From NCBI GenBank assembly GCA_965203775.1, contig OZ241913.1:3242653-3306652 (forward strand): 64,000 nt of DNA. The letters run 5' to 3'. This DNA comes from Dehalococcoidia bacterium (lineage in GTDB: Bacteria; Chloroflexota; Dehalococcoidia; Bin125). Position 1 is the stretch's first letter. Every line of letters begins with the position of its first letter. The notes under the pieces are model-generated. The model ran no database searches. It was given only the letters and a program-made list of their open reading frames with translations, and was not told the DNA's origin. Positions 79 to 32,848 of this stretch are shown here, in pieces. A program made the position numbers and the translations under genes.

Positions 79-1794
79 CTAGGGCGACGGGGCTGTGAGG
101 CGGTTGTTGGCGCTGTTGCCCCAGCAGGCGATAGTGCCGTCGGTCTTGATGCCGCAGGTGTGTTCATTGCCGGCGCTGACGGCGGTGTAGGTGCCTGCGG
201 TGACGGTGGTTTGGTCCTGGTTGTTGCGGCCCCAACAGGTGATTGCGCCGGCGCTGCTGAGCGCGCAGGTGTGATTTCTGCCGGCGCTGATCGCGGTGAA
301 CGTGCCCGAGGAGGGCGCGTCGCTCCTTTGGTTGTAAGCATTCCGGCCCCAGCAGGAGATCGCGCCGGCGCTGCTCAGCGCGCAGGTATGGCCCCCGCCG
401 GCGCTCAACGCAGTGAATGCGCCTGTCGGCGCGGCGGTCCGATCCTCAATGCTTTCGCCCCAGCAGTGGATCGCCCCGGTGCTGCGCAGCCCGCAGGTGT
501 AGGTGTCGCCGGCGCTGACTGCGCTGAACGTGCCCGTCTGCGCGTCGATCCGGCCTAACGTGCTGGCTCCCCAGCAGGAGACCGCTCCGCCGCTCGCCAG
601 TGCGCAGGTGTGCGACGCATCGGAGCCGCTGCCCAGCGCGGTGAAGCTGCCCGAGGGCGCGTTGAGGCGGTTGTTACTGCTCGCTCCCCAGCACTCAATT
701 GCGCCGCTGCTGCGCAGCGCGCAGGTGTGGTGCGCGCCGACCGCCAGCGCGGTAAATGAGCCCGTCGGAGCGTTGAGGCGGTTGTCGGCGTTGTTGCCCC
801 AGCAGACGATCGTGCCCGTGCTGCGCAGGGCGCAGGTGTGCGACCTGCCCGCGCTGAGCGCGGTGAACGTGGTTGGGGTTGGAGTCGGTGTAGGGGTTGG
901 CGTAGGCGTAGCAGGGTCCGGCGTTGCGCCGCCCTCGTCGTTGCTTGAGGTGTCCGCGACGGTCCGAGTAGCCGTTGTCGGGGTGAGCTCCGCAATCAGC
1001 TCAGGCAAGCGATCATCCTGCCCGCCCCAGCAGCGAGCGCGCTCGTCGTTGAGCGCGCAGGAGTGGCGCATTCCCGCGCTCACGGCGATGTAGCGCCCCG
1101 ACGGGGCGTTGGACTGGTCGTAGCGATCGTCGCCCCAGCACTCGATTGCGCCTGATTCGCGCAGCCCGCACGAGTGCCAGGCTCCGGCGCTGATTTGGGT
1201 GAAGACTCCCGTTGGGGCGTTGAGTTGGCTGAAGTTGTTGAGTCCCCAGCATTCGGCTGCGCCGTTTTCGCGCAGAGCGCAGCTATGCGTCGTGCCCGCG
1301 CTCACTTGCGTGAAGACGCCATCGGGGGCGTCGGTGCGTCCGAGGTTGGCGCGGCCCCAGCAGGCGATTTCGCCTGTTGTGCGCAGTCCGCAGGCGTGCA
1401 GATAGCCCGCGCTAACCGCGCTGAACTCCCCCTCCGGCGGATTCGCTTGTCCGTAGTCGAGCACGCTGCGGCCATAGCTGCTCGTTCCCCAGCACTCGAT
1501 CGCGCTGTCGCTCTTGCGGACGGCGCAGGCGAACTGCCAGCCCACGGCGATGTCGCTGAACGCGCCTTGCGGCGCGTTCTGATCTGCGCCCCAGCAGGCG
1601 ATTTCGCCGCCGCCCTGTCGGATGGCGCAGTTGTGCCAGTCGCCGGCGCTCACGGCCGTGTAGCGGCCTTCGGGGATGTCGCGCAGGTCTGCCTGGTTGC
1701 CGCCCCAGCAGCGGATCACGCCGTCGGCGCGGAGGGTGCATTGGTGCTCGCCGCCGGCGTCGAGCGCGAGGTAGCGGCTGGTTGAGGTGGGCAT
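79..1794 (-). CDS. RCC1-repeat (beta-propeller) protein, two repeat blocks joined by a PT-rich linker, paralog 1
   Basis: About 20 repeats of the type HTCALrstGaIxCWGxN and a (PT)n linker. The frame stays open upstream of the ATG at 1794 and encodes a signal-peptide h-region (KFLPIALAIAALLLAFLTLAQAA) up to the poly-C tract at 1866-1881. Confidence 0.75.
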   Translation of the reverse strand: MPTSTSRYLALDAGGEHQCTLRADGVIRCWGGNQADLRDIPEGRYTAVSAGDWHNCAIRQGGGEIACWGADQNAPQGAFSDIAVGWQFACAVRKSDSAIECWGTSSYGRSVLDYGQANPPEGEFSAVSAGYLHACGLRTTGEIACWGRANLGRTDAPDGVFTQVSAGTTHSCALRENGAAECWGLNNFSQLNAPTGVFTQISAGAWHSCGLRESGAIECWGDDRYDQSNAPSGRYIAVSAGMRHSCALNDERARCWGGQDDRLPELIAELTPTTATRTVADTSSNDEGGATPDPATPTPTPTPTPTPTTFTALSAGRSHTCALRSTGTIVCWGNNADNRLNAPTGSFTALAVGAHHTCALRSSGAIECWGASSNNRLNAPSGSFTALGSGSDASHTCALASGGAVSCWGASTLGRIDAQTGTFSAVSAGDTYTCGLRSTGAIHCWGESIEDRTAAPTGAFTALSAGGGHTCALSSAGAISCWGRNAYNQRSDAPSSGTFTAISAGRNHTCALSSAGAITCWGRNNQDQTTVTAGTYTAVSAGNEHTCGIKTDGTIACWGNSANNRLTAPSP

Positions 1795-1865
1795 GGCGGC
1801 CTGGGCGAGGGTCAGGAATGCGAGCAGGAGCGCGGCGATCGCGAGGGCGATCGGGAGGAATTTAT

Positions 1866-1881
1866 CCCCCCCCCCCCCCCC
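1866..1881 (-). repeat. Homopolymer tract, 16 C on + strand (16 G in the gene sense) inside the predicted signal-peptide region of RCC1 paralog 1
   Basis: Counted directly. ATG at 1929-1931 (minus) reads MTAAQRAGRALAALARSGGGGG then goes out of frame. 17 or 14 G would join it to the downstream ORF. Confidence 0.9.
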
Positions 1882-2072
1882 GATCGGGCAAGCGCCGCCA
1901 ACGCGCGGCCGGCGCGTTGGGCGGCGGTCATGAGGTCGGCACCGTGCTTCACGTCTGCCACTCTACACCAGCGCGGCTGGTTGCGCGATCTTGGGTTGAC
2001 GAGGGTTCTGTGTGAAGATGAGAGGCGACGGGGCGGGCAGCTGGGCTACACTGCCCGAACGGATGGGCGAGG

Positions 2073-3113: not shown

Positions 3114-3145
3114 GACGGGCGGTTAGGCTCTCGGCAGGAGCAGCG

Positions 3146-4300
3146 ATGATCGAACTTAATGAGGCGCAGGAACTGATTCGGCGCACGGTGCGCGGCTTCG
3201 CGGAGGCGGAGATCGAGCCGATCGCGGACGAGATCGACCGCGAGGACAAGTGGCCGGGGCATTTGTGGCCGATGCTCGGCGAGTTGGGGCTGTTGGGCGT
3301 GACGATCGACGAGCGCTACGGCGGCTCCGACGCGGGGCTGCTGGCGGGCGTGATTGCGACGGAGGAGATCGCGCGGGCGTCGGCGTCGGTCGCGCTGTCC
3401 TACGGCGCGCACGCGAATCTGTGCGCGAACAACATCGCGACCAACGGCAGCGAGGCGCAGAAGCGGCGCTATCTGCCGGGATTGTGCAGCGGGGCGGAGG
3501 TGGGCGCGCTGGCGCTGACCGAGCCGGAGGCGGGCTCCGACGCGGTGGGCATCCGCAGCACGGCGGCGCGCGAGGGCGATGTCTACCGGCTCAACGGGAG
3601 CAAGATGTTCATCACCAACGGGTCGGTCGCGGACACGCTGGTGCTCTACGCCAAGACCGATCCTGAGGCGGGCTCGCGCGGGATCACGGCGTTCATCGTG
3701 GAGTCCTCGTTCGAGGGCTTCTCGGTGGGGCAGAAGTTGGACAAGGTGGGTCACCGCGGCTCGCCTACCGCCGAGCTGCTGCTGGAGGATTGCCTGGTGC
3801 CGGCCGACAATGTGCTGGGGCGGGAGGGCGGCGGCGCGGCGGTGATGATGCAGGGGCTGGCGGTCGAGCGGGCGTTTCTGGCGGGCGAGCCGCTGGGGAT
3901 TGCGCAAGCGGCGCTGGATGCGGCGGTCGGCTACGCCCGCGAGCGGCGGCAGTTCGGACAGCGGATCGGCGATTTCCAGCTGATTCAGGCGATGCTGGCG
4001 GACATGTACACGGAGTTGGAGGCGGCGCGCTGGCTGGTCTACCGCACGGCGTCGCTGGTCGAGCAGCGGGCGGCGCGGGGAGAGCGGGCGAACAAAGAGG
4101 CGGCAGCGGCGATTCTGTATTCGGCGGAGATGTCGAGTCGGGTGGCGGACAAGGCGGTGCAGATTCACGGTGGCTACGGCTACATGAGCGAGAGTCGGGT
4201 GGCGCGCTACGCGCGCGACGCGAAGCTGCTGGAGATCGGGGCGGGGACGAGCGAGATTCGGCGCTTGCTGATTGGTCGGGAGTTGGTGGGGCCGGAGTAG
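3146..4300 (+). CDS. Acyl-CoA dehydrogenase (isovaleryl-CoA dehydrogenase-like)
   Basis: Full-length ACAD pattern (SYGAHANLC, LTEPEAGSD, FITNG, GDFQLIQ, catalytic-base region GGYGY) recognised by eye. Confidence 0.9.
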   Translation: MIELNEAQELIRRTVRGFAEAEIEPIADEIDREDKWPGHLWPMLGELGLLGVTIDERYGGSDAGLLAGVIATEEIARASASVALSYGAHANLCANNIATNGSEAQKRRYLPGLCSGAEVGALALTEPEAGSDAVGIRSTAAREGDVYRLNGSKMFITNGSVADTLVLYAKTDPEAGSRGITAFIVESSFEGFSVGQKLDKVGHRGSPTAELLLEDCLVPADNVLGREGGGAAVMMQGLAVERAFLAGEPLGIAQAALDAAVGYARERRQFGQRIGDFQLIQAMLADMYTELEAARWLVYRTASLVEQRAARGERANKEAAAAILYSAEMSSRVADKAVQIHGGYGYMSESRVARYARDAKLLEIGAGTSEIRRLLIGRELVGPE

Positions 4301-4306
4301 GGGCGG

Positions 4307-4335
4307 TTGACAAGGCGGGGCGGGGCGGTCAATCT
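4307..4335 (+). promoter_or_regulatory. Sigma-70-like promoter of sRNA-like unit A
   Basis: TTGACA (4307-4312), 17-nt spacer, caatct (4330-4335). Confidence 0.5.
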
Positions 4336-4340
4336 TGCTT

Positions 4341-4475
4341 GCGAGGGCCGGCAACTGCGTAGCGGAAGACGGTCCCGCCGACGGCGTCACCAGGCCCCCG
4401 GCAGGCGCTGTCAATGGCTCAAGGGGGTCGGAGGGCTGGTCGCTGCCATTGCGGGGGCCGGCCCTCACTCGTTTC
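4341..4475 (+). ncRNA. Candidate structured small RNA, unit A of four tandem paralogous units (family unknown)
   Basis: Conserved core ggtcccgccgacggcgtcaccaggcccccggcaggcgctgtcaatggct. 3' hairpin gagggctggt (4431-4440) / gccggccctc (4458-4467). No coding frame is shared between units. Ends are approximate. Confidence 0.5.
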
Positions 4476-4536
4476 TGCGCCGCTGGTTCGGCCTTGTCAT
4501 GGATTCAGTGCAGCTAGAGGCGATCTGTAGGCGCGC

Positions 4537-4565
4537 TTGACATTTCTCAGCGAAGCGGCCAACCT
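4537..4565 (+). promoter_or_regulatory. Sigma-70-like promoter of sRNA-like unit B
   Basis: TTGACA (4537-4542), 17-nt spacer, caacct (4560-4565). Confidence 0.5.
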
Positions 4566-4570
4566 TGTTC

Positions 4571-4705
4571 CTGAGGGCCAGCCACTGAGTATTCGGCCGC
4601 TGGTCCCGCCGACGGCGTCGCCAGGCCCCCGGCAGGCGCTGTCAATGGCTTCAGGGGGTCGGAGGGCCAGCCACCGCCACTGCGGTCGCTGGCCCCATTC
4701 GTCTG
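4571..4705 (+). ncRNA. Candidate structured small RNA, unit B
   Basis: Same core as unit A. 3' hairpin gggccagc (4664-4671) / gctggccc (4688-4695), with pairing kept by compensatory changes relative to A and D. Ends are approximate. Confidence 0.5.
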
Positions 4706-4745
4706 GCCCACTCCCCAAACGCGGCTGGAGCTTGGCGTCGGGGGC

Positions 4746-4774
4746 TTGACAATCCGCTTGGCGGTGTGCATCAT
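4746..4774 (+). promoter_or_regulatory. Sigma-70-like promoter of sRNA-like unit C
   Basis: TTGACA (4746-4751), 17-nt spacer, catcat (4769-4774). Confidence 0.5.
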
Positions 4775-4780
4775 TGCTCA

Positions 4781-4915
4781 TGAGGACTGTACCGACCCGT
4801 GGGGGACGGGCGGCCCCGCCGGAGACGTTGCCAGCCCCCGGTTGCGTCGCCATTGGCTGTTTGGGGGTGCGAAGGTCGGCCCCTGCCATCGCGGGCGCCG
4901 GCCTTCATCCTTGCT
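4781..4915 (+). ncRNA. Candidate structured small RNA, unit C (most diverged)
   Basis: Diverged core (ccccgccggagacgttgccagcccccggttgcgtcgccattggct). 3' hairpin gaaggtcggc (4871-4880) / gccggccttc (4897-4906), with a compensatory gg-to-ag / cc-to-ct change. Ends are approximate. Confidence 0.45.
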
Positions 4916-4973
4916 GATCTGCTGCCTCAATCGCGTCCTGGCTCCGCGCCGACAGAGACGATCTACAGGCGCG

Positions 4974-5003
4974 CTTGACATTTCGGGGCTGCGCAGTGCA
5001 TCA
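4974..5003 (+). promoter_or_regulatory. Sigma-70-like promoter of sRNA-like unit D
   Basis: TTGACA (4974-4979), 18-nt spacer, catcat (4998-5003). The upstream context gcgcgcttgacatttc is shared with unit B. Confidence 0.5.
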
Positions 5004-5007
5004 TTGC

Positions 5008-5140
5008 GGTGAGGGCCGGCAACTGCGTAGCGGAAGACGGTCCCGCCGACGGCGTCACCAGGCCCCCGGCAGGCGCTGTCAATGGCTCAAGGGGGTCGGA
5101 GGGCTGGTCGCTGCGTAGCGGGGGCCGGCCCTCACTCGTT
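5008..5140 (+). ncRNA. Candidate structured small RNA, unit D (near-identical to A)
   Basis: Core identical to A. 3' hairpin gagggctggt (5099-5108) / gccggccctc (5124-5133). The 3' end overlaps the stop of the convergent DUF3800 gene. Confidence 0.5.
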
Positions 5141-5857
5141 GGCCGGCATGACCTCGATCGCAGCCTCGCTGCTCCCGTGCAGCTTCTCGCGCACGATTTC
5201 CCAATCGGGCCGTTCCGGGTAACCGACGATGTGCCGGCCAATCGGCGTGACAACCAGGTCCGCCAGCTCCAGATCAACGAGTCGCTCCGATTTGTCATGG
5301 AATGACAACGAGGCAATGCGGCGACGGATCGAGCGCCCGGTGAAATCGCCTGCCCCAACCTCTCGCAGCGTTCGCCACTGCCTGAGAGTGCGGCGGTCCA
5401 ACGCCGGCTGCCGCTGTTCGGCGCGAATTCGCCCGCCGCGGTGCTGGTTGCCGACGATCTCACAGAACCGAATGACCAACCGTTCGAGCGCGTAGTGGTA
5501 CGGGTCGCCGACGGCCGGAGCCGACTCCGCATCAAGGCGATCTTTGCGCACCGCACACGCCACAACGCTGAATTCAAGGCCGCGCAGCACGGCGCTGAGT
5601 TCGCGAAAGAATGCGTTGCGAAAGTCGCGGTCCTGTAGAACAGAGAACACACCAGCGTTCCGGGTGATCTCCACGGTGTGCAAGACGAAGTCCGTTTGCC
5701 CGAACAGATCCCGCTTGAAGGCCCGAATTGCCTCGTCGGCTCGGATCCTCGCGTAGTCATCTTCGAAGATCACTCCGCCGAGGACGAAGACGGGGTAGCC
5801 CGGGTCAATCTGCTTGAGGTTGTGATCCCCCGACTCGTCCAGACTCATCGTCTTCAT
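5132..5857 (-). CDS. DUF3800-like protein
   Basis: Start chosen at MKTMSLDESGDHN (ATG 5855-5857), matching the DESG N-terminus typical of DUF3800. The upstream 84 codons of the track ORF lie inside the UGSC gene. The start overlaps the UGSC stop as ATGA. Confidence 0.65.
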   Translation of the reverse strand: MKTMSLDESGDHNLKQIDPGYPVFVLGGVIFEDDYARIRADEAIRAFKRDLFGQTDFVLHTVEITRNAGVFSVLQDRDFRNAFFRELSAVLRGLEFSVVACAVRKDRLDAESAPAVGDPYHYALERLVIRFCEIVGNQHRGGRIRAEQRQPALDRRTLRQWRTLREVGAGDFTGRSIRRRIASLSFHDKSERLVDLELADLVVTPIGRHIVGYPERPDWEIVREKLHGSSEAAIEVMPANE

Positions 5858-6390
5858 GGTTGCGCGCCGCTGAGCAGAATCTCCACGCCCTGGGCGTAGG
5901 CCTCGGCGGCGCGGGCAGCTAGCTCTGGCTGGCTGGCGCTGCCGATGGGGTGGTCTACCAGGGCGAAGGGGAAGTTGGGGAGGCCGAGGGTGCGGGCGAT
6001 CATTTTGCTCGTGGGCTCGAACGGATGCGTGCAGATCGCCAGCGCGGGCTTGCTCAGCTGCTCGAAAGTGATCGCGTCGTGCACACTGCACGTCGAGCAG
6101 GAGCCTCAATCGCCGACGGCGGTGATCAGGAAGTCCACGTTGTGGCTGAGATCGCGGAGCAGCTGCGGGTCGGCGACGCGGGAGGCGTTGGGCTTGGCCG
6201 TCTCGCGCGCGATGCGGCAGCCGTGCCGCTCGGCGAAGCGCTCGGCGGTCAGCCGCAGCAGGCGGTCGGCGTTGACCTTGCCGTTGGAGAGCAGGCCGAT
6301 TTTGAGGCCGTCGAGCGCGGACAGCCGCGCCGCCGCCGCGTAGCCGGTCTGCGGGGTTTGCCCGGTCGGGTCGAGGAGTTCGAGCGCCAT
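5854..6390 (-). CDS. UGSC-family selenoprotein (in-frame TGA = Sec at 6106-6108)
   Basis: Track ORFs 6106-6390 and 5854-6084 are in the same frame. Read-through gives ...ITAVGD-U-GSCSTCSVHDAITFEQ..., i.e. the UGSC motif. A hairpin follows the TGA. Confidence 0.7.
6075..6095 (-). promoter_or_regulatory. SECIS-like stem-loop downstream of the in-frame UGA
   Basis: RNA sense cgacgugca-gug-ugcacgacg: 6 perfect bp plus 2 bp beyond an A-A mismatch, with a G/U-containing loop. It starts 10 nt after the UGA. Confidence 0.55.
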
Positions 6391-6433
6391 GATGCCTGCC
6401 TTTGCTGGTTGCGCCTGGTTGGTTGGCTCGGCG

Positions 6434-7489
6434 TCAGCAGTCGAGGCAGACGCCGATCGGCCTGGTTTGGTAGAGCGAGTTGCGCCCGCGGCTCCAGGAG
6501 GGCAGGAAGGCGGAATGCCCGCCGGCTTCGCCGCCCGCGACCACGATCAGGATGTCCCCGGGCTCGCGCCCGCGGTGGAACGCGCCCGCGCCTCGCTCGT
6601 CAACGCCCGGGGCCAGGCCGTCGGCAGTGCGCTCGGCCGGCCACTTGCCGTGCGCGAGCAGTTCGGCGGCGGGGCGCCGGGCGCGCTCGAACAGATAGCG
6701 CTGCACATCCTCGCGGGCGTAGCCCGCCGAGGCGGCGATCTGCGCGTGTTCGGGCGACATCACGACCAGCGATTGGCCGTCGGTCAGCGCGCCCAGCGCG
6801 GCCATCGTGTCGGCGAAGGTGTCGAGCAGCGTGTCGGGATCGGCCGTGTAGTGGTTCTCGATGTTGTAGAAGCCGGACGCGGCGAAGGTCGTGACGGTGC
6901 TGACTTCGGGCGGGAAGCCGAGGCCGATGTGCAGCGGCTCCCAGGGGCTGTGCGCGGCGTTCTCGCCGATGCAGCAGCTGTACTTGCCCGGCCAGCCGGT
7001 GGTGGAGCGGTCGGCGATGCCGGGGGTCATGCGGAAGATGTTGAGGATGACGAGTCGGATTGCGCGGCCGATGGTGGCGTTGGCGCGGGCGCCGGGGCCG
7101 AACACGTTGACGCCGGTGTTGAGCCCGATCTCTTCGCCGATTTCGCCAGAGACGATCAGCACCGGCGCGGAGCCGCCGGTCGAGGCCGTCGATCCGTGGA
7201 AGTTGTAGGCGTCTTCGTTGAGCGCTTCCAGCGCGGCGAGCACGGTGGGGAAGTACTGCGGGAGGCAGCCGGCCATCACGGCGTTGATCGCGGCGTCCTG
7301 CACGCTGCACTCGCGGCCGGTGGCGGGGTGGCGGGCGACGACCTCTTCGGGCGGGCGTCCGGCGGCGGCGAGAAAGCGCTCGACCCGCTCGCGGGCGGGC
7401 GGCACGACGGGCAAGCCGTCGGTCCAGCCCTGCTCGTAGCACCAGTCGATCGCGGAGAGTTCGTCTTCAAGGTGGTGTGAGGTGGTCAT
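6434..7489 (-). CDS. Conserved hypothetical protein (351 aa, C-terminal CLDC), first gene of the UGSC cluster
   Basis: Long ORF with a non-repetitive, balanced composition, co-directional with the UGSC gene and 43 nt upstream of it. No family recognised by eye. Confidence 0.6.
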   Translation of the reverse strand: MTTSHHLEDELSAIDWCYEQGWTDGLPVVPPARERVERFLAAAGRPPEEVVARHPATGRECSVQDAAINAVMAGCLPQYFPTVLAALEALNEDAYNFHGSTASTGGSAPVLIVSGEIGEEIGLNTGVNVFGPGARANATIGRAIRLVILNIFRMTPGIADRSTTGWPGKYSCCIGENAAHSPWEPLHIGLGFPPEVSTVTTFAASGFYNIENHYTADPDTLLDTFADTMAALGALTDGQSLVVMSPEHAQIAASAGYAREDVQRYLFERARRPAAELLAHGKWPAERTADGLAPGVDERGAGAFHRGREPGDILIVVAGGEAGGHSAFLPSWSRGRNSLYQTRPIGVCLDC

Positions 7490-7545
7490 GCCTCAATTCT
7501 AAGGCGTGTTCGCACATGGCCGGCCGCCCTCCCATCGCACCCCGC

Positions 7546-9129
7546 TCAGGGCGAGCGCGTCGCGGGCGCCTGGTCTTCAACGTTGCGGCCCCAGCAGGCG
7601 ATCGTGCCATCGGTCTTGATGCCGCAGGTATGCGCATAGCCTGCGCTGACTGCGCTGTAGGTTCCCGCCGCGACCGCCGTCTGGCTGCTGGCATTGGAGC
7701 CCCAGCAAACGACCGCTCCCGCGCCGGTCACCCCGCAGGTGTGCGCATTCCCCGCGCTGACCGCGCTGTAGGTTCCCGCCGTGACGTCCGTCTGGCTGTT
7801 GGTGTTCAGACCCCAACAGACGATCGTCCCCGTGCTGCGCAGCCCGCAGTTGTGGCTGCCGCCCGCGCTGACGGCGGTGAACGTGCCTGTCTGCGCAGCG
7901 GTCCGATCGTTGCCGCTGTTTCCCCAGCAGTGAACCGCTCCCGTGCTGCGCAGTCCGCAGCTGTGACTGCCGCCCGCGCTGACGGCGGTGAATGTGCCCG
8001 TCAGCGTGGAGGTATCGGTCCGACCGTTGCCGCTGGCTCCCCAGCAGGAAACTCCACCACTGCTCGCCACCGCGCAGGTATGCCCCGCCTCGGAGCTGCT
8101 GCCGAGCGCGGTGAAGCTGCCTGAGGGCGCGGTCGTGCGGCTGTGGCCGTTGAATCCCCAGCAGACGATTGCGCCGCTGCTGCGCAGCGCGCAGGTGTGC
8201 GAGTTGCCGGCTGCCAGCGCGGTGAAGTCGGAACCCGTCGGCGGGGTGGCGCGGTTGTTGGCGTTGTTGCCCCAGCAGTCGAGCGTGCCCGTGCTGCGGA
8301 TGGCGCAGGTGTGGAAGCCGCCTGCGCTGACGGCGGTGTACGTGGTCGTCGGAGTTGGCGTCGGCGTCGGTGTGGGAGTTGGCGTGGGCGGGTCCGGCGT
8401 CGTCTCGCTCTCGTCGCCGCTTGATGTATCCGCGACGGTTCGGGTAACAGTGGTCGGCGTGAGCTCCGCAATCAGCTCAGGCAGGCGATCATCCTGCCCG
8501 CCCCAGCAGCGCGTGCCCGTGCGGCTTAGCGCGCAGGAATGGCGCATTCCTGCGCTGATGGCGAGATAGCGCCCCGACGGGGCGTTGGATTGGTCGTAGC
8601 GGTCGTCGCCCCAGCACTCGATTGCGCCTGATTCGCGCAAGCCGCAGCTGTGCCATGCTCCGGCGCTGATTTGGGTGAAGGCTCCTGATGGGGTGTCCAA
8701 CTGGCCGAAGTTGTTCAGCCCCCAGCACTCGGCTTCGCCGTTTTCGTGGAGGGCGCAGGAGTGGGTCGTGCCGGCGCTGATTTGGGTGAAAGTGCCTGAT
8801 GGCGCGTCGGTGCGTCCGAGGTTGGCGCGGCCCCAACAGGTGATTTCTCCCGTCGTTTGCAGTCCGCAGGCGTGGAGGTAGCCAGCGCTCACGGCACGGA
8901 ACTCGCCCTCCGGTGGATCCGCCTGGCCGTAGTCGAGCACGCTGCGGCCATAGCTGCTGGTTCCCCAGCACTCAAGCTCGCTGTCGCTTTCGCGGACGGC
9001 GCAGGCGAACTGCCAGCCTGCGGCGATGTCGCTGAACGCGCCTTGCGGCGCGTTCTGATCTGCGCCCCAGCAGGCGATTTCGTCGTTCTCCTGGCGGATC
9101 GCGCAGTTGTGCCATGCGCCGGCGCTCAC
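7546..9129 (-). CDS. RCC1-repeat protein, paralog 2 (track start is internal; the frame is open up to the poly-G tract at about 9342)
   Basis: Same architecture as 79-1794. Upstream in-frame translation RKPLSIALAIAALLLAALTLAQAATPTSTSRHLALDAGGEHQCTLRADGLIRCWGG matches the paralog 1 N-terminus but contains no start codon. Confidence 0.75.
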   Translation of the reverse strand: MSAGAWHNCAIRQENDEIACWGADQNAPQGAFSDIAAGWQFACAVRESDSELECWGTSSYGRSVLDYGQADPPEGEFRAVSAGYLHACGLQTTGEITCWGRANLGRTDAPSGTFTQISAGTTHSCALHENGEAECWGLNNFGQLDTPSGAFTQISAGAWHSCGLRESGAIECWGDDRYDQSNAPSGRYLAISAGMRHSCALSRTGTRCWGGQDDRLPELIAELTPTTVTRTVADTSSGDESETTPDPPTPTPTPTPTPTPTTTYTAVSAGGFHTCAIRSTGTLDCWGNNANNRATPPTGSDFTALAAGNSHTCALRSSGAIVCWGFNGHSRTTAPSGSFTALGSSSEAGHTCAVASSGGVSCWGASGNGRTDTSTLTGTFTAVSAGGSHSCGLRSTGAVHCWGNSGNDRTAAQTGTFTAVSAGGSHNCGLRSTGTIVCWGLNTNSQTDVTAGTYSAVSAGNAHTCGVTGAGAVVCWGSNASSQTAVAAGTYSAVSAGYAHTCGIKTDGTIACWGRNVEDQAPATRSP

Positions 9130-9343
9130 CGCGCTGTAGCGGCCTTCGGGGGTGTTGCGCAGATCTGCCTGGTTGCCGCCCCAGCAGCGGATTAGGCCGT
9201 CGGCGCGGAGCGTGCATTGGTGTTCGCCGCCGGCGTCGAGGGCGAGGTGGCGGCTGGTGGATGTGGGGGTGGCGGCTTGGGCGAGGGTCAGGGCGGCGAG
9301 CAGGAGCGCGGCGATCGCGAGGGCGATCGAGAGCGGTTTACGT

Positions 9344-9358
9344 CCCCCCCCCCCCCCC
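9344..9358 (-). repeat. Homopolymer tract, 15 C on + strand (15 G in the gene sense) in the signal-peptide region of RCC1 paralog 2
   Basis: Counted directly. GTG at 9428-9430 (minus) reads MNHTANLPTAAQRARRAAAALTRFGGGGG then hits a stop. 14 or 17 G would restore the frame. Confidence 0.9.
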
Positions 9359-9439
9359 GAATCGGGTAAGCGCCGCCGCCGCGCGGCGGGCGCGTTGGGC
9401 GGCGGTCGGGAGGTTGGCGGTGTGGTTCACGGTTGTCAC

Positions 9440-10900
9440 TTTACACCAGTGGGGCGTCTTCGTGATAGCTGCGGGGATGGGGGTGTGGAGAGTTGCTTTG
9501 CGCGCGGTTCCTGCCTGCGCAGGAATGACGGTGGGGGGGCGCAGGAATGACGGTGGGGAGGTGGGGGATGACGAGAGGGGGTGCGGGGGTGACGGGAGAG
9601 GGGCGCGCAGGAATGACGGAATGGGGTAGGTGTGACGGGAGGGAGGCGTGGGAGTGAGGGAGGGAGGCGTGAGGATGGCGAGAGAGGGGGCGGGGATGGC
9701 GGGAGTGTGGATGCCGCCTTGGAGGGTGTGGGCTGCCGCTCGGCCGCTGGTGGACGCTCGGGGCCTCCCACCCCCCACCTAACCTCCCCCCTGGAAGGGG
9801 GGAGGGATGAATTGGGGAAGGGGCGAGGAAAGTGGGGTTGGGAGCGGGTGGGTTCCTGCCTGCGCAGGAATGACGGTGGGGGGCGCGGGAATGACGGGAT
9901 GGGGGCGCAGGGGTGGCGAGAGGGGGGCGCGGGAATGGCGGGAGGGGCGCGCGGGTTCCTGCCTGCGCAGGAATGACGGAGGGGCGCGCGGGGGTGACGG
10001 AATGGGGTAGGTGTGACGGGAGGGAGGCGTGGGGGTGAGGGGAGGGAGGCGTGGGGGTGAGGGGAGTGTGGATGCGCTTTGGAGGGTGTGGGCTGCCGCT
10101 CGGCCGCTGGTGGACGCTCGGGGCCTCCCACCCCCCACCTAACCTCCCCCCTGGAAGGGGGGAGGGATGAATTGGGGAAGGGGTGGGTGTGTGTGAGGGG
10201 GGAGAGGGGTGGATTGGCGGGGTAGGTTCCTGCCTGCGCAGGAATGACGGAGAGGGGGCGCGGGAATGGCGGGAGGGGCGCGCGGGGGTGGCGGGAGGGG
10301 CGCGCGGGTTCCTGCCTGCGCAGGAATGACGGAGGGGGGCGCGGGGGTGACGGAATGGGGTAGGTGTGACGAGAGGGAGGCGTGGGGATGAGGGGAGTGT
10401 GGATGCGCTTTGGAGGGTGTGGGCTGCCGCTCGGCCGCTGGTGGACGCTCGGGGCCTCTCACCCCCCACCTAACCTCCCCCCTGGAAGGAGGGAGGGATG
10501 AATTGGGGAAGGAGGGGGTTGGGGGGGTGTGAGGGGGGATGCGTGTGTGGGGTGGATTTTGGGTGGGTTGCTGGCTGTGCGGGGGTGACGGGGTGGCGCG
10601 CGGGTTCCTGCCTACGCAGGAATGACGGAATAAGGGCAGGAATGACGGAGGGAGGCGCGGGAATGGCGGGAGGGGCGCGCGGGGGTGGCGGAGGGGGTGC
10701 GCGCGGGTTCCTGCCTGCGCAGGAATGACGGAATGGGGGGGCGCGGGAATGGCGGGAGGGGCGCGCGGGGGTGACGGAGGGGGTGCGCGTGGGTTCCTGC
10801 CTGCGCAGGAATGGCGGAGGGGGGAGGCAGGGATGGCGGGAGGGGGGCGCGGGGGTGTGGCGGAGGGGGTGAGGGGGCGTGGGCGATCGGGGTGGGGTGG
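9440..10900. repeat. About 1.45 kb gene-free array of REP-like elements (families A and B) organised as about 350-380 bp macro-repeats
   Basis: Family A copies near 9506, 9851, 9955, 10225, 10306, 10603, 10706 and 10791. Family B (cctcccccc-tggaa-ggggggagg hairpin) at 9783-9805, 10143-10165 and 10474-10497. The block gacggaatggggtaggtgtgac recurs near 9615, 9996 and 10345. Confidence 0.85.
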
Positions 10901-10906
10901 GGGCGG

Positions 10907-11761
10907 TTAGGGGGTGAAGTTGATGTGCTGTGGGTGGGTGGAGGCGAGGCGGCGGGCGGCGATTTGGGTGGCTTTGGGGTTGTTGTCGATTAGTAGGTAG
11001 GGGCGGTTGTTGCGGGCGGCGGCTTCGCCGGTGGTGCCGGAGCCGGCGAAGCAGTCGAGCACGAGGTCGCCGGGGTTAGAGTGGACGCGGACGATGCGTT
11101 CGAGGATGGCGAGCGGCTTTTGGGTGGGGTAGCCGGTGCGCTCGCGGCTGTTGGTGGGGACGATTGTCTGCCACCAGACATCGGTCGGGGTCTTGCCGCG
11201 CTCGGCCTTGGCCTTGCCGACGAGGTCGGGGGCGAGGTAGGGGATGCGATCGATGGCGTCGTAGTTGAAGGTGTAGCGCTGTGGGTCTTTGGCGTACCAA
11301 AAGATGGCGTCGTGCTTGGCGGGCCACTTGCGTTTGGAGCGGCCGCCGAAGTCGTAGGCCCAGATGATTTCGTTGAGGAAGCTCTCGCGTCCGAAGATGG
11401 CGTCGAGGAGCAGCTTGCAGTAGTGGGCTTCGCGGTAGTCGATGTGGAAGAAGAGCGAGCCGTGGGGGGCGAGGATGCGGTGCAGCTCGAGCAGGCGCGG
11501 CTCGATGAAGGCGAGGAAGTCGTCGAAGAGGTCGGCGAAGGAGTGGGAGCCGAGCGCGATGCTGCGGTAGCGTCGCCCGCCGAAGCCGACGCGGTCGCCG
11601 GCGGTGTCGTCGCGCTGGGTGCGGAGGCGCGTGCGGCGCTGCTCGCGGCCGGTGTTGAAGGGCGGGTCGAGGTAGATCAGCGGGACGGAGCCGCTCTCGA
11701 GGCCGGGGAGGATGTCGAGGTTGTCGGCGAGGATGATCCGGTTTTCGCTGCCGCCGCTCAT
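10907..11761 (-). CDS. Site-specific DNA methyltransferase, beta-class (N6-adenine or N4-cytosine), no adjacent endonuclease
   Basis: DPPFNTG (motif IV) is N-terminal and VLDCFAGSGTTGEAA (motif I) is C-terminal, which is the beta-class order. Confidence 0.8.
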   Translation of the reverse strand: MSGGSENRIILADNLDILPGLESGSVPLIYLDPPFNTGREQRRTRLRTQRDDTAGDRVGFGGRRYRSIALGSHSFADLFDDFLAFIEPRLLELHRILAPHGSLFFHIDYREAHYCKLLLDAIFGRESFLNEIIWAYDFGGRSKRKWPAKHDAIFWYAKDPQRYTFNYDAIDRIPYLAPDLVGKAKAERGKTPTDVWWQTIVPTNSRERTGYPTQKPLAILERIVRVHSNPGDLVLDCFAGSGTTGEAAARNNRPYLLIDNNPKATQIAARRLASTHPQHINFTP

Positions 11762-11791
11762 TGGGCCAGTCTAAGCCCAGCGCCCGGCTTG

Positions 11792-11839
11792 GCGGTGTTC
11801 GGGGCGGTGTTCGGGGCGGTGTTCGGGGCGGTGTTCGGG
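11792..11839. repeat. Perfect 4 x 12-nt tandem repeat (gcggtgttcggg) just upstream of the methyltransferase start
   Basis: Counted directly in the sequence. Confidence 0.9.
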
Positions 11840-11916
11840 TTTTGTTTTTTTCAGGGTGATCGGGGGTGATTTTGGGGGCGCCCCTATCTGGTCGGGGCGG
11901 TTGGGGGCGTTCGGAT

Positions 11917-11956
11917 TTGTTCAGGTTTGTTCGGGTTTGTTCAGGTTTGTTCGGGG
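11917..11956. repeat. 4 x 10-nt tandem repeat (tttgttc[a/g]gg)
   Basis: Counted directly in the sequence. Confidence 0.85.
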
Positions 11957-12120
11957 CGGCGCCGGGTTGGTTGGGGCGCGGGATGTGTTGCGGGGGTTGG
12001 GGAGAGACAGGCATGGTCGCGCACCTTTGTTCTTCTGTGAGGGTAAGGGTAGCACGGTTGCGGGGAGTTGGCGGCGCCGGGTGGTTCCTGCCTGCGCAGG
12101 AATGACGGAGGAAGTGCAGG

Positions 12121-13770
12121 ATGGGGACGGAGGAGGTCGTAGGATTGGGGGATGGCGGGGCGCGACGGACCTTTTCGGGAGTGGGGGCTGGGCGCGTGAG
12201 CGCGCTGAGGGGGCGTGGCGCGTCGGGGGATGATCAGCCGCTTGTGAGCGGGCCCAGCCTTGGGCCGATTCCGTATCGGTGGGTGGCGGCGGGGATCGTC
12301 TGCATCGGCATCTTTCTCGGCGTGCTGGACAACTCGATCACGAATGTGGCGCTGCCGACGCTGGCGGACGAGTTCGGGCGGCCGGAAGAGGATGTGATCT
12401 GGGTCGCGCTGGCCTTCATCGTGGTCAGCACCGGGTTGTCGCTGACGATGGGGCGGCTGGGCGACCTCTACGGGCGCAAGCTGCTCTACACGGTCGGCTT
12501 CGCGATCTTCACGGTGGCGACGCTGCTCTCGGCGCTCTCCGGCTCGCTCGAAGAGCTGATCGGCACCCGCGTGCTGCAGGCGATCGGCTCTGCGATGACG
12601 ATGGCCAACGGGGCGGCGATCATCACGGCGTCGTTTCCGCCGTCGCGGCGGGGAACGGGGCTGGGGATCATGGTGTCGACGGTGGGGGCGGGCTTTGCGG
12701 CGGGGCCGGTGCTGGGTGGGGTGCTGGTGGAGTGGCTCGACTGGCGGGCGATTTTCTGGACGCGCGCGCCGCTGGGGCTGGTCGGGGCGTTCCTGGCCTG
12801 GCGGCTGCTGGCCGACGCGCCCGCCGAGCAGCGGCCCAAGGGCCTCGACGTGCCCGGCGCGTTTCTGCTGTTCGGCGTGCTGGGCGCGCTGACGCTGGGC
12901 ATCAACCGAGGGCGCGAGGTCGGCTGGGAAAGCCCGATCATTCTGGGGATGTTCGCCGCCTGCGCGCTCTTCCTGATCGCCTTCATCGCAGTCGAGCGGC
13001 GGGTGGCCAGCCCGGTGGTGGATCTGGGGCTGTTCAAAGGGCGCGGATTTTCGGCGGGCGTGCTCGCCGCGATTCTCCAATTCATGGGCATGTCGGCGGC
13101 GATCTCGCTGGGGCCGTTCTTTCTGATTGACGGAAGCGGCTACAGCACGTTCGAGGCGGGGCTGATGATCATGCCGATGCCGGTGGCGATGCTGCTGATC
13201 TCGCCGGTCTCGGGGATGCTGTCGGATCGGCTCGGTTCGCGGCCGCTGACGACGCTGGGCTTAATTTTGGTCAGCGGCGCGCTGCTCTCGCTGGCGATGC
13301 TGGACAGCGGCGCGCAGCCGATCGAGTTCATGTGGCGGATGCTGGTGCTGGGCATCGGCACTTCGATCTTCAGCTCACCCAACACCTCGGTGATCATGTC
13401 GGCGGTGCCGCCCGACCGATTGGGCACGGCGTCGGCCTCGCAGACCACGGCGCGGACGATTGGCACGGCGATCGGCTACGCGATCTGGTTCGCGCTGTAT
13501 TCCAACGCGGCGATCGCGTTCGGTCTGGAGAACGGCGTGGAGCGGGAAACGCCGGCGGCGATTGTGAGCGGGTACCGGGCGGCGCTGCTGGTGGCTGGGC
13601 TGGTTACGATTCCGGCGATCGGGCTGGCGTTAATCGGCGGGCAGCGGGGCGTGCGGCGCGCGGCGGCGACCGTGCAGCGGCTGGTCGGCGCGCCGATCGC
13701 CACGGGGTTAATCGCCGCGCCGCGCCCGCAGAAGGCGGCCGCGATCGCCGATGAAGGAGTACTGGACTAA
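12121..13770 (+). CDS. MFS transporter, DHA2/EmrB-like (14-TMS type); start uncertain
   Basis: LGVLDNSITNVALPTLADEF, GRLGDLYGRK and many hydrophobic spans. The first 40 or so codons of the track ORF are probably not translated. Confidence 0.8.
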   Translation: MGTEEVVGLGDGGARRTFSGVGAGRVSALRGRGASGDDQPLVSGPSLGPIPYRWVAAGIVCIGIFLGVLDNSITNVALPTLADEFGRPEEDVIWVALAFIVVSTGLSLTMGRLGDLYGRKLLYTVGFAIFTVATLLSALSGSLEELIGTRVLQAIGSAMTMANGAAIITASFPPSRRGTGLGIMVSTVGAGFAAGPVLGGVLVEWLDWRAIFWTRAPLGLVGAFLAWRLLADAPAEQRPKGLDVPGAFLLFGVLGALTLGINRGREVGWESPIILGMFAACALFLIAFIAVERRVASPVVDLGLFKGRGFSAGVLAAILQFMGMSAAISLGPFFLIDGSGYSTFEAGLMIMPMPVAMLLISPVSGMLSDRLGSRPLTTLGLILVSGALLSLAMLDSGAQPIEFMWRMLVLGIGTSIFSSPNTSVIMSAVPPDRLGTASASQTTARTIGTAIGYAIWFALYSNAAIAFGLENGVERETPAAIVSGYRAALLVAGLVTIPAIGLALIGGQRGVRRAAATVQRLVGAPIATGLIAAPRPQKAAAIADEGVLD

Positions 13771-15245
13771 TGCCCGAACAGCGCGGAACGGTCGTGGTGG
13801 TCGGCGCGGGCAACGCGGCGCTGTGCGCGGCGATCAGCGCGCGCGAGCAGGGCGCCGAGGTGCTGGTGCTCGAAAAGGCTCCCGAGGCGGAGCGCGGCGG
13901 TAACACCTATTTCACCGGCGGCGGCTTTCGCTTTCCGTATGAGGGAATTGACGAAATCCGCGAGTTGATCCCCGATCTGAGCGAGGCCGAGCTCGCGCGG
14001 GTGGATGTGGGCGCGTATCCGGCGGCGCAATTCCGCGCGGATCTGGCGCGGGTGACGGAGGGGTTGATCGACGACGGCCTGGCCACGACGCTGGTGCGCG
14101 AGGCGCGGCCCACGATGCGATGGCTGGCCGAGCGCGGCGTGCGCTTCACGCTGATGACCGGGCGGCAGGCGAATGAGGTGGATGGGGTACTCGTTTTCTA
14201 CGGCGGTTTGACCGTCGAGGCGGTTGGGGCGGGCAAGGGGCTGTCCGATCAGGAGTTCGCCGCGGCGGAGCGGCTCGGCGTCGAGCTGCGCTACGGCGCG
14301 AAGGTTGTGGGGCTGCTGCGCGACGGCGCGCGGGTGCGCGGCGTGCGCGTCCGGCTGGACGGCGCGGAAGAAGAGATCGCGGCCGACGCGGTGGTGCTGG
14401 CGGCGGGCGGCTTCGAGGCGAACACGGAGATGCGCACGCGCTACCTGGGGCAGGGCTGGGACCTGGCCAAGGTGCGCGGCTCGCGGTTCAATACCGGCGA
14501 CGCGATCCGCGCGGCGCTGGAGATCGGCGCGCAGTCGTTCGGTCACTGGTCCGGCGCGCACGCCGTCGCCTGGGATCTGAATGCGCCGCCGACGGGGAAT
14601 CGGGTGGTCGCGGATCTGTACCAGAAACACTCGTACCCGTACGGGATCATCGTCAATCTCGACGGCGAGCGGTTCGTGGACGAGGGCGCGGATCTGCGCA
14701 ACTACACGTATGCCAAGTACGGACGCGAAATCCTGCGCCAGCCGGGGCGGGTCGCGTTTCAGGTTTTCGACCAGCAGACGGTCGGTCTGCTGCGCGACGA
14801 GTACCGCGTGAGGCAGGCGACGATGGCGCAGGCAGAGACGATCGGCGAACTGGCGGAGGCGTTGGGCGTTTCCGTTACGGGGTTGGAGCGCACGGTCGCC
14901 GAATTCAACGCGGCCTGCGGCGGGGGGGAATTTCACCCGTCCGTGTTGGACGGGCTGCGCACGGAGGGGGTTGAGCCGCCCAAATCGAATTGGGCGCTGC
15001 CGCTGACGGAGCCGCCCTTCCTCGGCTACGCGGTGACCTGCGGGATTACGTTCACCTTCGGCGGGCTGCGGATTGATCCGCGCTCGGCGCAGGTGCTGGA
15101 TACGGAGGAGCAGCCGATCGAGGGCCTGTACGCGGCCGGCGAGTTGATCGGCGGACTGTTCTACGACAACTACGCGGGCGGCTCCGGCCTGATGGCGGGC
15201 GCGGTGTTCGGCCGCATCGCGGGACGATCGGCGGCGCAGCGATGA
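13770..15245 (+). CDS. FAD-dependent dehydrogenase, TcuA / fumarate-reductase-flavoprotein-like
   Basis: VVVVGAGNAALCAAISAREQGAEVLVLEKAPEAERGGNT dinucleotide-binding N-terminus, and a C-terminal GLYAAGE motif. Confidence 0.75.
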   Translation: MPEQRGTVVVVGAGNAALCAAISAREQGAEVLVLEKAPEAERGGNTYFTGGGFRFPYEGIDEIRELIPDLSEAELARVDVGAYPAAQFRADLARVTEGLIDDGLATTLVREARPTMRWLAERGVRFTLMTGRQANEVDGVLVFYGGLTVEAVGAGKGLSDQEFAAAERLGVELRYGAKVVGLLRDGARVRGVRVRLDGAEEEIAADAVVLAAGGFEANTEMRTRYLGQGWDLAKVRGSRFNTGDAIRAALEIGAQSFGHWSGAHAVAWDLNAPPTGNRVVADLYQKHSYPYGIIVNLDGERFVDEGADLRNYTYAKYGREILRQPGRVAFQVFDQQTVGLLRDEYRVRQATMAQAETIGELAEALGVSVTGLERTVAEFNAACGGGEFHPSVLDGLRTEGVEPPKSNWALPLTEPPFLGYAVTCGITFTFGGLRIDPRSAQVLDTEEQPIEGLYAAGELIGGLFYDNYAGGSGLMAGAVFGRIAGRSAAQR

Positions 15246-27285: not shown

Positions 27286-27458
27286 GCATTCCTCCGTTCC
27301 CGGGTGGGTGGTGTCATTGAGTAAGCTATGCAGCGTTGGCGGCAGCTTGGTTTCGCGCGGTTTACGCGCTTGTGTCGTTTGGATGTCGCCGTGTTTCGGG
27401 GATGTTTCGGGGACTGATCGTGAGTGGGGTAAATCGGGCAGGTGAGCGGAGCGGGACG

Positions 27459-27890
27459 ATGAACTATCGGCTGATGCGGGCGGTGACGCGAATTCAGGAT
27501 GCGCAGTTTTCGCTGTTTGGGGGGCGCTGGATGGGTCCGCCGACGCTGCGGTTGACGACGACGGGTCGGCGGAGCGGTCGGGCGCGGCGGGTGCTGCTGC
27601 TGTATCTGGAGGATGGGGAGCGGCTGGTCGTGATCGCGTCGGCGGGCGGGGCGGCGGCGGATCCGGACTGGTGCAAAAATCTGCGGGCAAATCCGCGGGC
27701 GGTGGTGGAGCGCGGCAGGCGGGCGACGGCGGAGTATGAGGCGGTGGAGTTGGAGGGTGAGGAGCGGGAGGCGATGTTCGGGAAGATGTGCGGGCTGTTT
27801 TCGCATTTCGAGGGGTATCAGCGGAAGGCGGGGCGTTTGATTCCGGTGGTGGCGTTGGAGCGGGTGGGGTTCCTGCCTGCGCAGGAATGA
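27459..27890 (+). CDS. Deazaflavin(F420)-dependent nitroreductase-family protein
   Basis: TTTGRRSGRARRVLLLYLEDGERLVVIASAGGAAADPDWCKNLRANP pattern. The C-terminal GFLPAQE and the stop codon come from a family A repeat. Confidence 0.7.
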   Translation: MNYRLMRAVTRIQDAQFSLFGGRWMGPPTLRLTTTGRRSGRARRVLLLYLEDGERLVVIASAGGAAADPDWCKNLRANPRAVVERGRRATAEYEAVELEGEEREAMFGKMCGLFSHFEGYQRKAGRLIPVVALERVGFLPAQE

Positions 27891-29693: not shown

Positions 29694-29768
<75 letters not shown>

Positions 29769-29861
29769 ACCGTGGACTGAGGGAGCAGGCTGCGAAAGCG
29801 TGTTGAGCGTGCGGCGTGTGCGGCGCGGATGCGCGCCGCTGCGCTGCGCAGTGGGTAGGGC

Positions 29862-32848
<2,987 letters not shown>

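Follow-up and report, generated by a model that had tools for sequence, protein, structure and literature searches.

Poly-G tracts in the signal-peptide code of a large Dehalococcoidia propeller gene family as probable phase-variation switches

Two genes encoding proteins with RCC1-type repeats lie on the minus strand of the 64,000-nucleotide (nt) stretch of Dehalococcoidia contig OZ241913.1 analyzed here (the window), and each carries, a short distance after its GTG start codon and within the code for its signal peptide, a run of G residues (16 nt in paralog 1, 15 nt in paralog 2) that leaves the start codon out of frame with the body of the gene. Judged by the sequences of these two genes and of their relatives in other assemblies, the tract is probably the switch of a contingency (phase-variable) gene that belongs to a large dispersed family. 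The switch is of a known kind, while the phylum, the protein family, the copy number and the tract length are new. To our knowledge, repeat-driven contingency genes have been described almost exclusively in cultured pathogens and vertebrate commensals. Searches of the literature turned up neither repeat-mediated phase variation in Chloroflexi nor an RCC1-type propeller family of this sort in sponge symbionts.

In paralog 2, the GTG (9428..9430, minus strand, read as 9430-9428) opens 24 codons (MNHTANLPTAAQRARRAAAALTRF), and the 23 that follow it (NHTANLPTAAQRARRAAAALTRF, 9359..9427, minus strand) form an Arg-rich n-region ahead of the poly-G. Read directly from the sequence, the tract is exactly 15 nt long (9344..9358, minus strand, read as 9358-9344; poly-C on the plus strand) and is followed by ACG and by a TAA at 9340-9338 (9338..9340, minus strand), which overlaps the main-frame codons CGT-AAA and ends the upstream frame in the G15 phase. 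The main frame downstream of the tract (7546..9345, minus strand) comprises 599 codons and a stop. Translation in silico with tracts of 13, 14, 15, 16 and 17 G gives products of 46, 627, 30, 47 and 628 residues, respectively, and with 14 or 17 G the frame reads GGGGGRKPLSIALAIAALLLAALTLAQAATPTSTSRH and continues to the stop at 7546. This putative slippage site is also in frame at 20 G, and the gene as assembled is one deletion or two insertions away from its full-length product. Paralog 1 (79..1952, minus strand), 7.5 kb away from paralog 2, consists of a GTG at 1952-1950, an n-region, a tract of 16 nt (1866..1881, minus strand, read as 1881-1866) and a main frame at 79-1866, and is in frame at 17 or 14 G, with tracts of 14, 15, 16, 17 and 18 G giving 623, 29, 46, 624 and 30 residues. 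The sequence-only reading of this DNA had proposed the GTG at 9428-9430, the 15 G with an immediate stop, the read-through at 14 or 17 G, and opposite single slips in the two genes, all of which is borne out by the sequence and the in silico translations, paralog 2 needing 14 G and paralog 1 needing 17 G.

The tract also occupies the same place in both genes, as that reading had claimed, lying between the Arg-rich n-region and the hydrophobic h-region and starting 72 nt (paralog 2) or 71 nt (paralog 1) after the GTG. The length of the n-region is fixed at 71 or 72 nt in the 23 paralogs of the core set defined below, and an equivalent of the GTG is kept in 23 of 23; it is also the start of a 621-residue gene called on an in-frame allele (L159; loci from other assemblies are given L numbers). 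An alternative start, the GTG at 9778 of a mechanically called open reading frame (ORF; 9338..9778), was rejected because paralog homology begins only ∼20 nt before the GTG at 9430. No ATG, GTG or TTG was found by in silico translation in the stretch that separates the tract from the h-region or further upstream in the main frame. Among the paralogs the h-region is 95% identical at codon positions 1 and 2 and 74% identical at position 3, and this protein-level constraint indicates that it is translated in the main frame; with no start codon available to the h-region itself, ribosomes must reach it from the conserved GTG by way of the tract. A chance origin of the tracts is ruled out by the run-length spectrum of the window, where C runs reach at most 6 nt and G runs at most 7 nt, no homopolymer of 8–12 nt occurs, and the only longer ones measure 13, 15 and 16 nt.

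The gene family across genomes

A scan of representative genomes, using the N-terminal half of the protein as the query, revealed at least 21 paralog loci in OZ241849.1 (“MAG: Dehalococcoidia bacterium,” a metagenome-assembled genome of 3.31 Mb), all 21 of the loci coming from this one chromosome. In a homolog search, a 210-residue N-terminal query lists the close family, whereas with the full-length protein long multi-repeat RCC1 proteins at 30–45% identity dominate. Exact matches to the window's own RCC1 ORF and to its acyl-CoA dehydrogenase were looked for, and none is on record. Counts are based on a core set of 23 copies, 21 from OZ241849.1 and two from the window, or on 30 when seven copies from other assemblies are included. 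Positions 2190-14244 of the window are collinear with locus L001 of OZ241849.1 at 92–97% identity, and hence the window comes from a close relative of that organism and not from the same genome. The scale is unusually large, as the 3.3-Mb genome holds at least 21 copies and every one of them has a tract to itself. The earlier suggestion that the tract is maintained and not accidental is upheld by a survey of these related RCC1-repeat genes for N-terminal poly-G, as a run of G12–G20 is found at the same 5′ position in 21 of the 21 paralogs fetched from OZ241849.1, and the seven copies from other assemblies also have it at the identical position. It is still present (G13) in L151, a homolog with only 51% protein identity, and is degenerate (GGGGGCGGG) in L155, a 59% homolog with an ATG start (L155/L156).

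When the 23 copies are anchored on the tract they share a module that reads ...CTGGTGTA(A/G)AGT, 7 nt, GTG, an n-region of 71/72 nt, the G run, TAAA preceded by A, ACG or CA, and the h-region. The run is read as a stretch of Gly, and a Lys or Arg codon precedes the h-region. In all members, changes of tract length affect the frame in the way seen for paralog 2. Compensating indels distinguish two sub-types, GATTC-Gn-ACGTAAA and GATC-Gn-ATAAA, which are both in frame at n = 14, 17 and 20, and further sub-types, whose flanks differ by one base, are in frame at 13 or 16. By hand and by program, five of the 23 copies are in frame (L002 G20, L010 G17, L011 G20, L015 G20 and L016 G17). In 12 copies, including window paralog 2 and L001, the tract is G15 and the upstream frame meets TAA at once, and the remaining six are in the other OFF phase (four with G16, one with G17 after loss of a flanking A, and one with G12 in a sub-type that needs 13 or 16). 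Across all 30 copies, eight are in frame and 22 are out of frame. Mean pairwise nucleotide identity among the paralogs is 0.78–0.85 in the N-terminal domain and 0.64–0.68 in the C-terminal propeller. Gene conversion among paralogs was considered and found no clear evidence, the longest identical stretch being 84 nt and lying in the conserved 5′ module.

Two further observations concern tracts in variant settings. In L149 (around 10100-10127) the tract is G16, normally out of frame, and a 1-nt insertion in the n-region (GCGCGGTTGG compared with GCGCGTTGG) restores the frame, which is either a compensating mutation that fixes this copy ON or an assembly error. In L024, from Dehalococcoidia MAG OZ251531.1, a G12 run (5637-5648) lies ∼25 nt downstream of a promoter-like pair, TTGACA-18-TAGTGT, and the gene of a distantly related RCC1-repeat lipoprotein follows ∼225 nt after it. 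This tract, arranged differently, may act at the level of transcription or of the leader. A scan of metagenome contigs with a pattern that set no condition on the tract (GCTTRCNCGATN{1,26}TAAAN{5,9}GATCGC), which proved too loose, returned 120 chance matches and none with a G run.

The out-of-frame genes are otherwise intact. A downstream ORF of 584–604 codons is retained in 17 of the 18 OFF copies, the exception being L027, where the frame is cut after 106 codons. The Nei-Gojobori method applied to 231 pairs gives medians of 0.19 for nonsynonymous divergence (dN), 0.72 for synonymous divergence (dS) and 0.26 for dN/dS, with a median dN/dS of 0.27 for OFF-OFF pairs, and the orthologs window paralog 2 and L001, both G15, have a dN/dS of 0.30 at a dS of 0.18. 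As judged by these substitution patterns, the out-of-frame copies are under purifying selection and are not decaying. Standard annotation calls such genes truncated ORFs or pseudogenes, and inventories of symbiont genes therefore list too few members of the family.

The stop that follows the tract appears to be selected as well. In every member the first codons after the run are xxT-AAA or, in L151 and L152, xxT-AGA, and consequently the phase one base longer than the in-frame one meets TAA or TAG at once. The codon before AAA/AGA varies in its first two bases (GA, CG, CA, GG) and the T is kept. Elsewhere in these genes Lys is encoded by AAG in 25 of 26 cases, CGT accounts for 4% of Arg codons, and T occupies 10% of third positions. 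This suggests that selection acts on the nucleotides themselves, so that translation stops promptly in the most frequent OFF phase. The second OFF phase (e.g., G16 in paralog 1) ends at a TGA ∼17 codons further on.

Tract lengths at orthologous loci were compared in few strains, and some of the copies are of different sequence sub-types. At the paralog 2 locus the tract measures 15 nt in the window, 15 in L001 and 16 in L157, while at the paralog 1 locus it is G16 plus A in the window, G17 in L157 and G13, in frame, in L159. Look-ups of neighboring genes yielded further copies. L157 (ERZ25070167), whose acyl-CoA dehydrogenase is 99% identical, is collinear with window positions 79-12960, and at the paralog 1 locus its G17 is directly followed by TAAA, an A-to-G change having lengthened the run with the phase unchanged. 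In L159 (SPIRE-style scaffold PANK22-1_SAMN12290757, presumably short-read and from a different assembly pipeline), which has the gene order Uma2-RCC1-DnaJ-acyl-CoA dehydrogenase, G13 is followed by CATAAAC and the full-length 621-residue gene is called from the predicted GTG. Among the other PANK22-1 scaffolds, L150 and L151 have G13 in frame, L153 has G14 out of frame (in the TAA phase), and L154 has an interrupted run, GGGTG11, in frame. The locus of L011, which is ON with G20, corresponds to that of L153, which is OFF with G14; their flanks are 92% identical, and the L153 gene is of a different sub-type. The PANK22-1 label, which is shared by five related scaffolds and presumably stands for the work on sponges and their microbes by Pankey et al. 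2022 (cited in PMC11410982), is the basis on which a sponge-symbiont origin is suggested.

The genes themselves also differ between strains. L158, from a more distant genome (circular, 3.17 Mb, dehydrogenase 92% identical), has no propeller gene at either site, and no homopolymer of 8 nt or more was found in the 16 kb of it that was examined. Between strains the propeller genes are 82–91% identical and the flanks 96–98%, and at two loci the flanks are 92–97% identical and the gene at most 87%; over the comparisons of the window with L157, of L149 with L018 and of L153 with L011, the values are 76–91% for propeller genes and 92–98% for flanking housekeeping genes. The genes diverge faster than their flanks and L158 lacks both of them, which indicates rapid turnover or diversification of the family. 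Where the window is aligned with L001 or L157, the gaps come as compensated pairs within divergent stretches and are hardly ever associated with homopolymers (three of 88 for L157).

Phase variation and the alternatives

A phase-variable mechanism would operate as follows. Slipped-strand mispairing at replication would add or remove G residues, and only 14, 17 or 20 G (13 or 16 in some sub-types) would place the start codon in frame with the export signal and the propellers. In the G15 OFF phase the conserved TAA/TAG would stop translation right after the tract, and in the G16 phase a TGA would stop it ∼17 codons later. Each copy would switch alone, so that a population would display changing combinations of secreted or surface propellers, whose most likely ligands are proteins from the host, from phages or from neighboring cells. 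Independent switching is plausible because the paralogs of one genome fill all three phases and orthologous tract lengths differ between strains, and we infer frequent, reversible length change within the lineage. By extension from the rates in Campylobacter jejuni, tracts of G15–G20 should be extremely unstable, giving a mixed population in which the assembled length would be a local mode. A mutational attractor near 15–16, between the in-frame lengths 14 and 17, could then account for a mostly OFF consensus and the lack of 14, selection against having many copies ON may add to the OFF excess, and slippage of RNA polymerase and ribosomes on the long run would probably contribute leaky expression. 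If this is true, symbionts of basal animals vary exposed proteins stochastically, which bears on how sponges or their phages recognize resident bacteria.

Several points weigh against this mechanism. Exactly 15 G is found in 12 of the 23 tracts and 14 G in none, although 14 is in frame and only a single slip from 15; simple slippage by ±1 with neutral drift does not predict this pattern, and hence a mutational attractor, selection against the ON state or some other cause is needed. None of the three strains seen has an ON tract at the paralog 2 locus. A run of this length should also make RNA polymerase and ribosomes slip, thereby blurring the distinction between ON and OFF. Long reads probably underlie the chromosome-level assemblies, and in such data homopolymers of 15–20 nt are the least reliably called, while the SPIRE scaffolds, which are presumably short-read, carry shorter tracts (G13–G14, with G11 in L154) that are mostly in frame, with the proviso that retrieval of these scaffolds by N-terminal protein match favored in-frame copies.

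The last of these points raises the question of assembly artefacts, in which case the true lengths would all be in frame (14, 17 or 20), the out-of-frame tracts would be homopolymer miscalls, and the genes would be constitutive. Homopolymers of 15–20 nt are the weakest point of long-read data, OZ241849.1 consists of one chromosome of 3.3 Mb, and the names of the ERZ contigs (ctgNNN_19.76x_l, contig_11) resemble those given by long-read assemblers; in addition, four of the five SPIRE scaffolds, with G13–G14 or the interrupted G11 of L154, are in frame. Such an artefact is nevertheless quite unlikely, as it requires 15 to have been called for each true 14 (12 of 12, with none remaining at 14), 17 or 20 to be read correctly five times and other 17s to be read as 16, which is no coherent bias. 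Two independent assemblies agree on 15 at an orthologous locus, shorter homopolymers lack indel noise, the presumably short-read scaffold L153 is also out of frame (G14), and the conserved rare-codon stop makes sense only if out-of-frame reading occurs. Individual tract lengths may be off by one. Slippage at the RNA level, where DNA lengths are stable and polymerase stutter or ribosomal slippage gives each copy some in-frame product, the tract acting as a dimmer that holds output down, as has been proposed for frameshifted poly(A) genes of insect endosymbionts, is unlikely, although it fits the purifying selection on out-of-frame copies, the predominance of G15 and a paralog 2 locus that is out of frame in three strains. 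Wernegreen and colleagues reportedly found in 2010 that selection maintains homopolymer frameshifts in insect endosymbionts, which would be a precedent. However, a programmed frameshift normally has one conserved phase, and the one out-of-frame arrangement that a recoding site would have in all homologs is not seen among the 23 paralogs; all three phases occur, including five in-frame copies, and for this reason a dedicated recoding site is unlikely on the sequence evidence. Transcriptional slippage has been reviewed, and the known sites are A/T runs (PMC3711429). Slippage at the RNA level is also compatible with switching at the DNA level, and the two are not exclusive.

We give little credence to a third account, according to which the run is kept at 15 nt or more as a three-tetrad G-quadruplex (G4) that blocks or tunes translation or provokes recombination among paralogs, with the change of frame as a side effect. 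Tracts of at least 15 nt are present in 22 of the 23 copies of the two chromosome-grade genomes, 15 is the minimum length from which a three-tetrad G4 can fold, propeller genes diverge faster than their flanks between strains, and the G4 model of ViennaRNA makes the three-tetrad form the minimum-energy fold of the 5′ RNA from n = 15, with a gain of ∼11 kcal/mol, and predicts a four-tetrad form at n = 20, the only longer length tried. On the other hand, L005 has G12, the relatives on SPIRE scaffolds have only G11–G14 uninterrupted, identical stretches among paralogs do not exceed the 84 nt noted above and are not long conversion tracts, and G4 formation is itself purely a thermodynamic prediction. 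The G4 at pilE in Neisseria drives recombination, and it is conceivable, at similarly long odds, that a G4 at the 5′ end of at least 20 paralogs stalls replication or transcription and so leads to both slippage and recombination, making a combined on/off and antigenic-variation system in the symbiont of an early-branching animal. Finally, it is very improbable that these are decaying pseudogenes, members of a recently expanded family inactivated at a mutational hotspot. While 18 of the 23 copies are out of frame, L027 is truncated, and L157-p2, L150, L152 and L153 have further disruptions, the family is old (median dS 0.72) and 17 of the 18 OFF copies keep ORFs of 584–604 codons at a dS of ∼0.7 and a dN/dS of ∼0.27. 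Decay is thus contradicted by dN/dS and ORF integrity, as estimated from the aligned genes.

The predicted protein and its surroundings

By inspection, the tract is placed between the n- and h-regions of a Sec-type cleavable signal peptide. The h-region and a cleavage-type site, AQA-A, lie in the main frame at 9274..9339 (minus strand; KPLSIALAIAALLLAALTLAQA; hydropathy peak 2.0–2.5). The net charge is +6 over residues 1–31, the Kyte-Doolittle peak is 2.5 over residues 34–48, and the site reads LAQA-A. The protein is accordingly predicted to be exported. The n-region is unusually long (∼31 residues), and its variation among the 23 paralogs has no strong codon periodicity, which fits a segment where charge is the main requirement. 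A twin-arginine translocation (Tat) signal was rejected by inspection, as the RR pair lies ∼20 residues ahead of the h-region and there is no RRxFLK motif.

The repaired protein contains 14 CWG repeats (7 + 7) spaced by ∼37 residues, with 28 Cys, two per repeat, and its two propellers are disulfide-rich. The N-terminal seven-bladed propeller (8500..9249, minus strand; model residues 33–282) has seven CWG repeats with two Cys per blade, matches Pfam RCC1_2 and WD40_RLD, and is modeled mostly at a predicted local distance difference test (pLDDT) above 90. It is joined by a Thr/Pro-rich disordered linker, ..TPTPTPTPTPTPT.. (8359..8490, minus strand; model residues 286–329, pLDDT <50), to a C-terminal seven-bladed propeller (7588..8340, minus strand; model residues 336–586), which is more variable among paralogs than the N-terminal one. 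The repaired paralog proteins score 300 and 276 bits against RCC1_2 (cut-off 22), with 11 stretches each, and the match to WD40_RLD, the RCC1-like domain, is 179 bits against a cut-off of 150. The AlphaFold2 model of the window's post-tract frame has a mean pLDDT of 88.5 and consists of an N-terminal helix, corresponding to the h-region, and two separate propellers. In a Foldseek search of the PDB the top match is BLIP-II (3qi0_F; template modeling (TM) score 0.75 on the target, root-mean-square deviation 1.8 over 252 columns, 28% identity), followed by the CRINKLY4 ectodomain (7a0j, TM 0.71–0.76) and UVR8 and then by RCC1, RPGR and HERC2. The matches to BLIP-II, CRINKLY4, UVR8 and RCC1 all have a probability of 1.00, with E-values of 1e-19 to 1e-16 for the BLIP-II/CRINKLY4 sub-type compared to ∼1e-13 for RCC1.

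The label “RCC1” used in the sequence-only reading therefore holds for the Pfam family (RCC1_2) and needs refining for the fold, which according to Foldseek is nearest to secreted BLIP-II and the CRINKLY4 ectodomain and not to nuclear RCC1. Judged by the modeled structure, the gene would encode a tandem propeller of secreted type that resembles the compact BLIP-II/CRINKLY4 group and not the guanine nucleotide exchange factor of Ran. Like BLIP-II and CRINKLY4, which are secreted or extracellular, it has compact seven-bladed propellers with blades of ∼37–40 residues, and unlike them it has two propellers in tandem with a Thr/Pro linker. BLIP-II, from Streptomyces exfoliatus, is a very tight protein binder.

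Upstream of the gene, a conserved box, CTGGTGTAAAGT (9438..9449, minus strand), contains a −10-like TAAAGT/TAGAGT exactly 7 nt before the GTG and holds the lowest-entropy upstream positions in the 23 paralogs. Paralog homology begins at this box, which is also present in the 51% homolog L151, and the box is a candidate promoter that would give a leaderless or near-leaderless mRNA. A sigma-70 consensus scan called no promoter upstream of either window paralog. An element resembling repetitive extragenic palindromes (REP-like), with the core CGCAGGAATGACGG (often GTTCCTGCCTGCGCAGGAATGACGG), has 28 matches in the window compared to ∼1 expected, 27 of the 28 on the plus strand, at 9518-10817 (16 copies), 20-69, 12095, 27880-28219 and 29305-29582. 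It occupies the whole 1.5-kb gap that precedes paralog 2 and is also found next to paralog 1, and its TGAC may supply a −35-like element of the family promoter in some copies.

The third long homopolymer of the window, an intergenic G13 (27950-27962, plus strand), is located within the REP-like array between a gene for an F420H2-dependent quinone reductase (27336-27890) and an IS30-like transposase. Comparable intergenic runs occur in the relative (C14 at 11554 in L003; C13 at 88 and C16 at 12382 in L017), and some of its intergenic runs are extensions of the GG end of the repeat unit. The transposase (28304-29315, plus strand) extends over two overlapping frames, with HTH_38 in 28304-29287 and the rve core in 28524-29315, and either carries a frameshift or is a pseudogene. 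The window also contains a complete 23S rRNA gene (29861-32846, minus strand) followed by a tRNA-Met(CAT) (29695-29769, minus strand), and Rfam detected no 16S or 5S in the 64-kb window, the rRNA genes being unlinked. N6/N4 DNA methyltransferase genes adjoin family members, one at 10907-11761 (minus strand) beside paralog 2 and two, together with a NucS-domain gene, at 6665-8754 beside the L149 copy. The plus strand has a strong and sustained skew of G over C across the whole window (24,803 G vs. 18,290 C), with the cumulative skew rising almost throughout, and the propeller genes are on the minus strand.

Relation to known systems

The propeller family shares features with several known systems. 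Like the frameshifted poly(A) genes of insect endosymbionts, which are reportedly rescued by transcriptional slippage, it has out-of-frame homopolymers under purifying selection in what is probably a host-associated bacterium. The endosymbiont runs described by Wernegreen and colleagues are said to be poly(A), to occur in AT-rich genomes and to be spread among housekeeping genes, with no conserved position particular to a family. In Treponema pallidum the tpr genes, which are paralogous candidates for surface-exposed proteins, have a variable 5′ poly-G in the promoter that changes transcription, whereas in the Dehalococcoidia genes the tract is inside the coding sequence and changes the frame.

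The closest system in repeat type is that of the poly-G/C genes of C. jejuni, which also have an intragenic poly-G on the coding strand, tens of loci and a modal length. Their modal length, G9, results from an insertion bias in short tracts and a deletion bias in long ones, and the deletion rate rises from 0.4 to 39 × 10^-4 per division between G8 and G11 (PMC3401435). The C. jejuni genes are, however, unrelated to one another, encode mostly surface-glycan enzymes, and have tracts of G8–G11 (modal 9) that are weakly conserved at each locus, whereas the tracts described here belong to one gene family, have a fixed position and range in length from 12 to 20 with a mode of 15.

In architecture the closest parallel is with the opa genes of Neisseria gonorrhoeae and N. 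meningitidis, in the gonococcus a set of ∼11 dispersed genes that are each switched, independently of one another, by repeats in the code for the leader peptide (PMC3745409). Both families consist of dispersed paralogs, each with its own repeat in the signal or leader code, and in both the number of repeats sets the frame. The opa repeat is a CTCTT pentamer and not a homopolymer, and the opa product is an outer-membrane beta-barrel adhesin of a proteobacterial pathogen, while that of the tract-bearing genes is a predicted secreted double propeller of an uncultured Dehalococcoidia. The copy number is also different, with ∼11 opa genes compared to at least 21 members of the propeller family.

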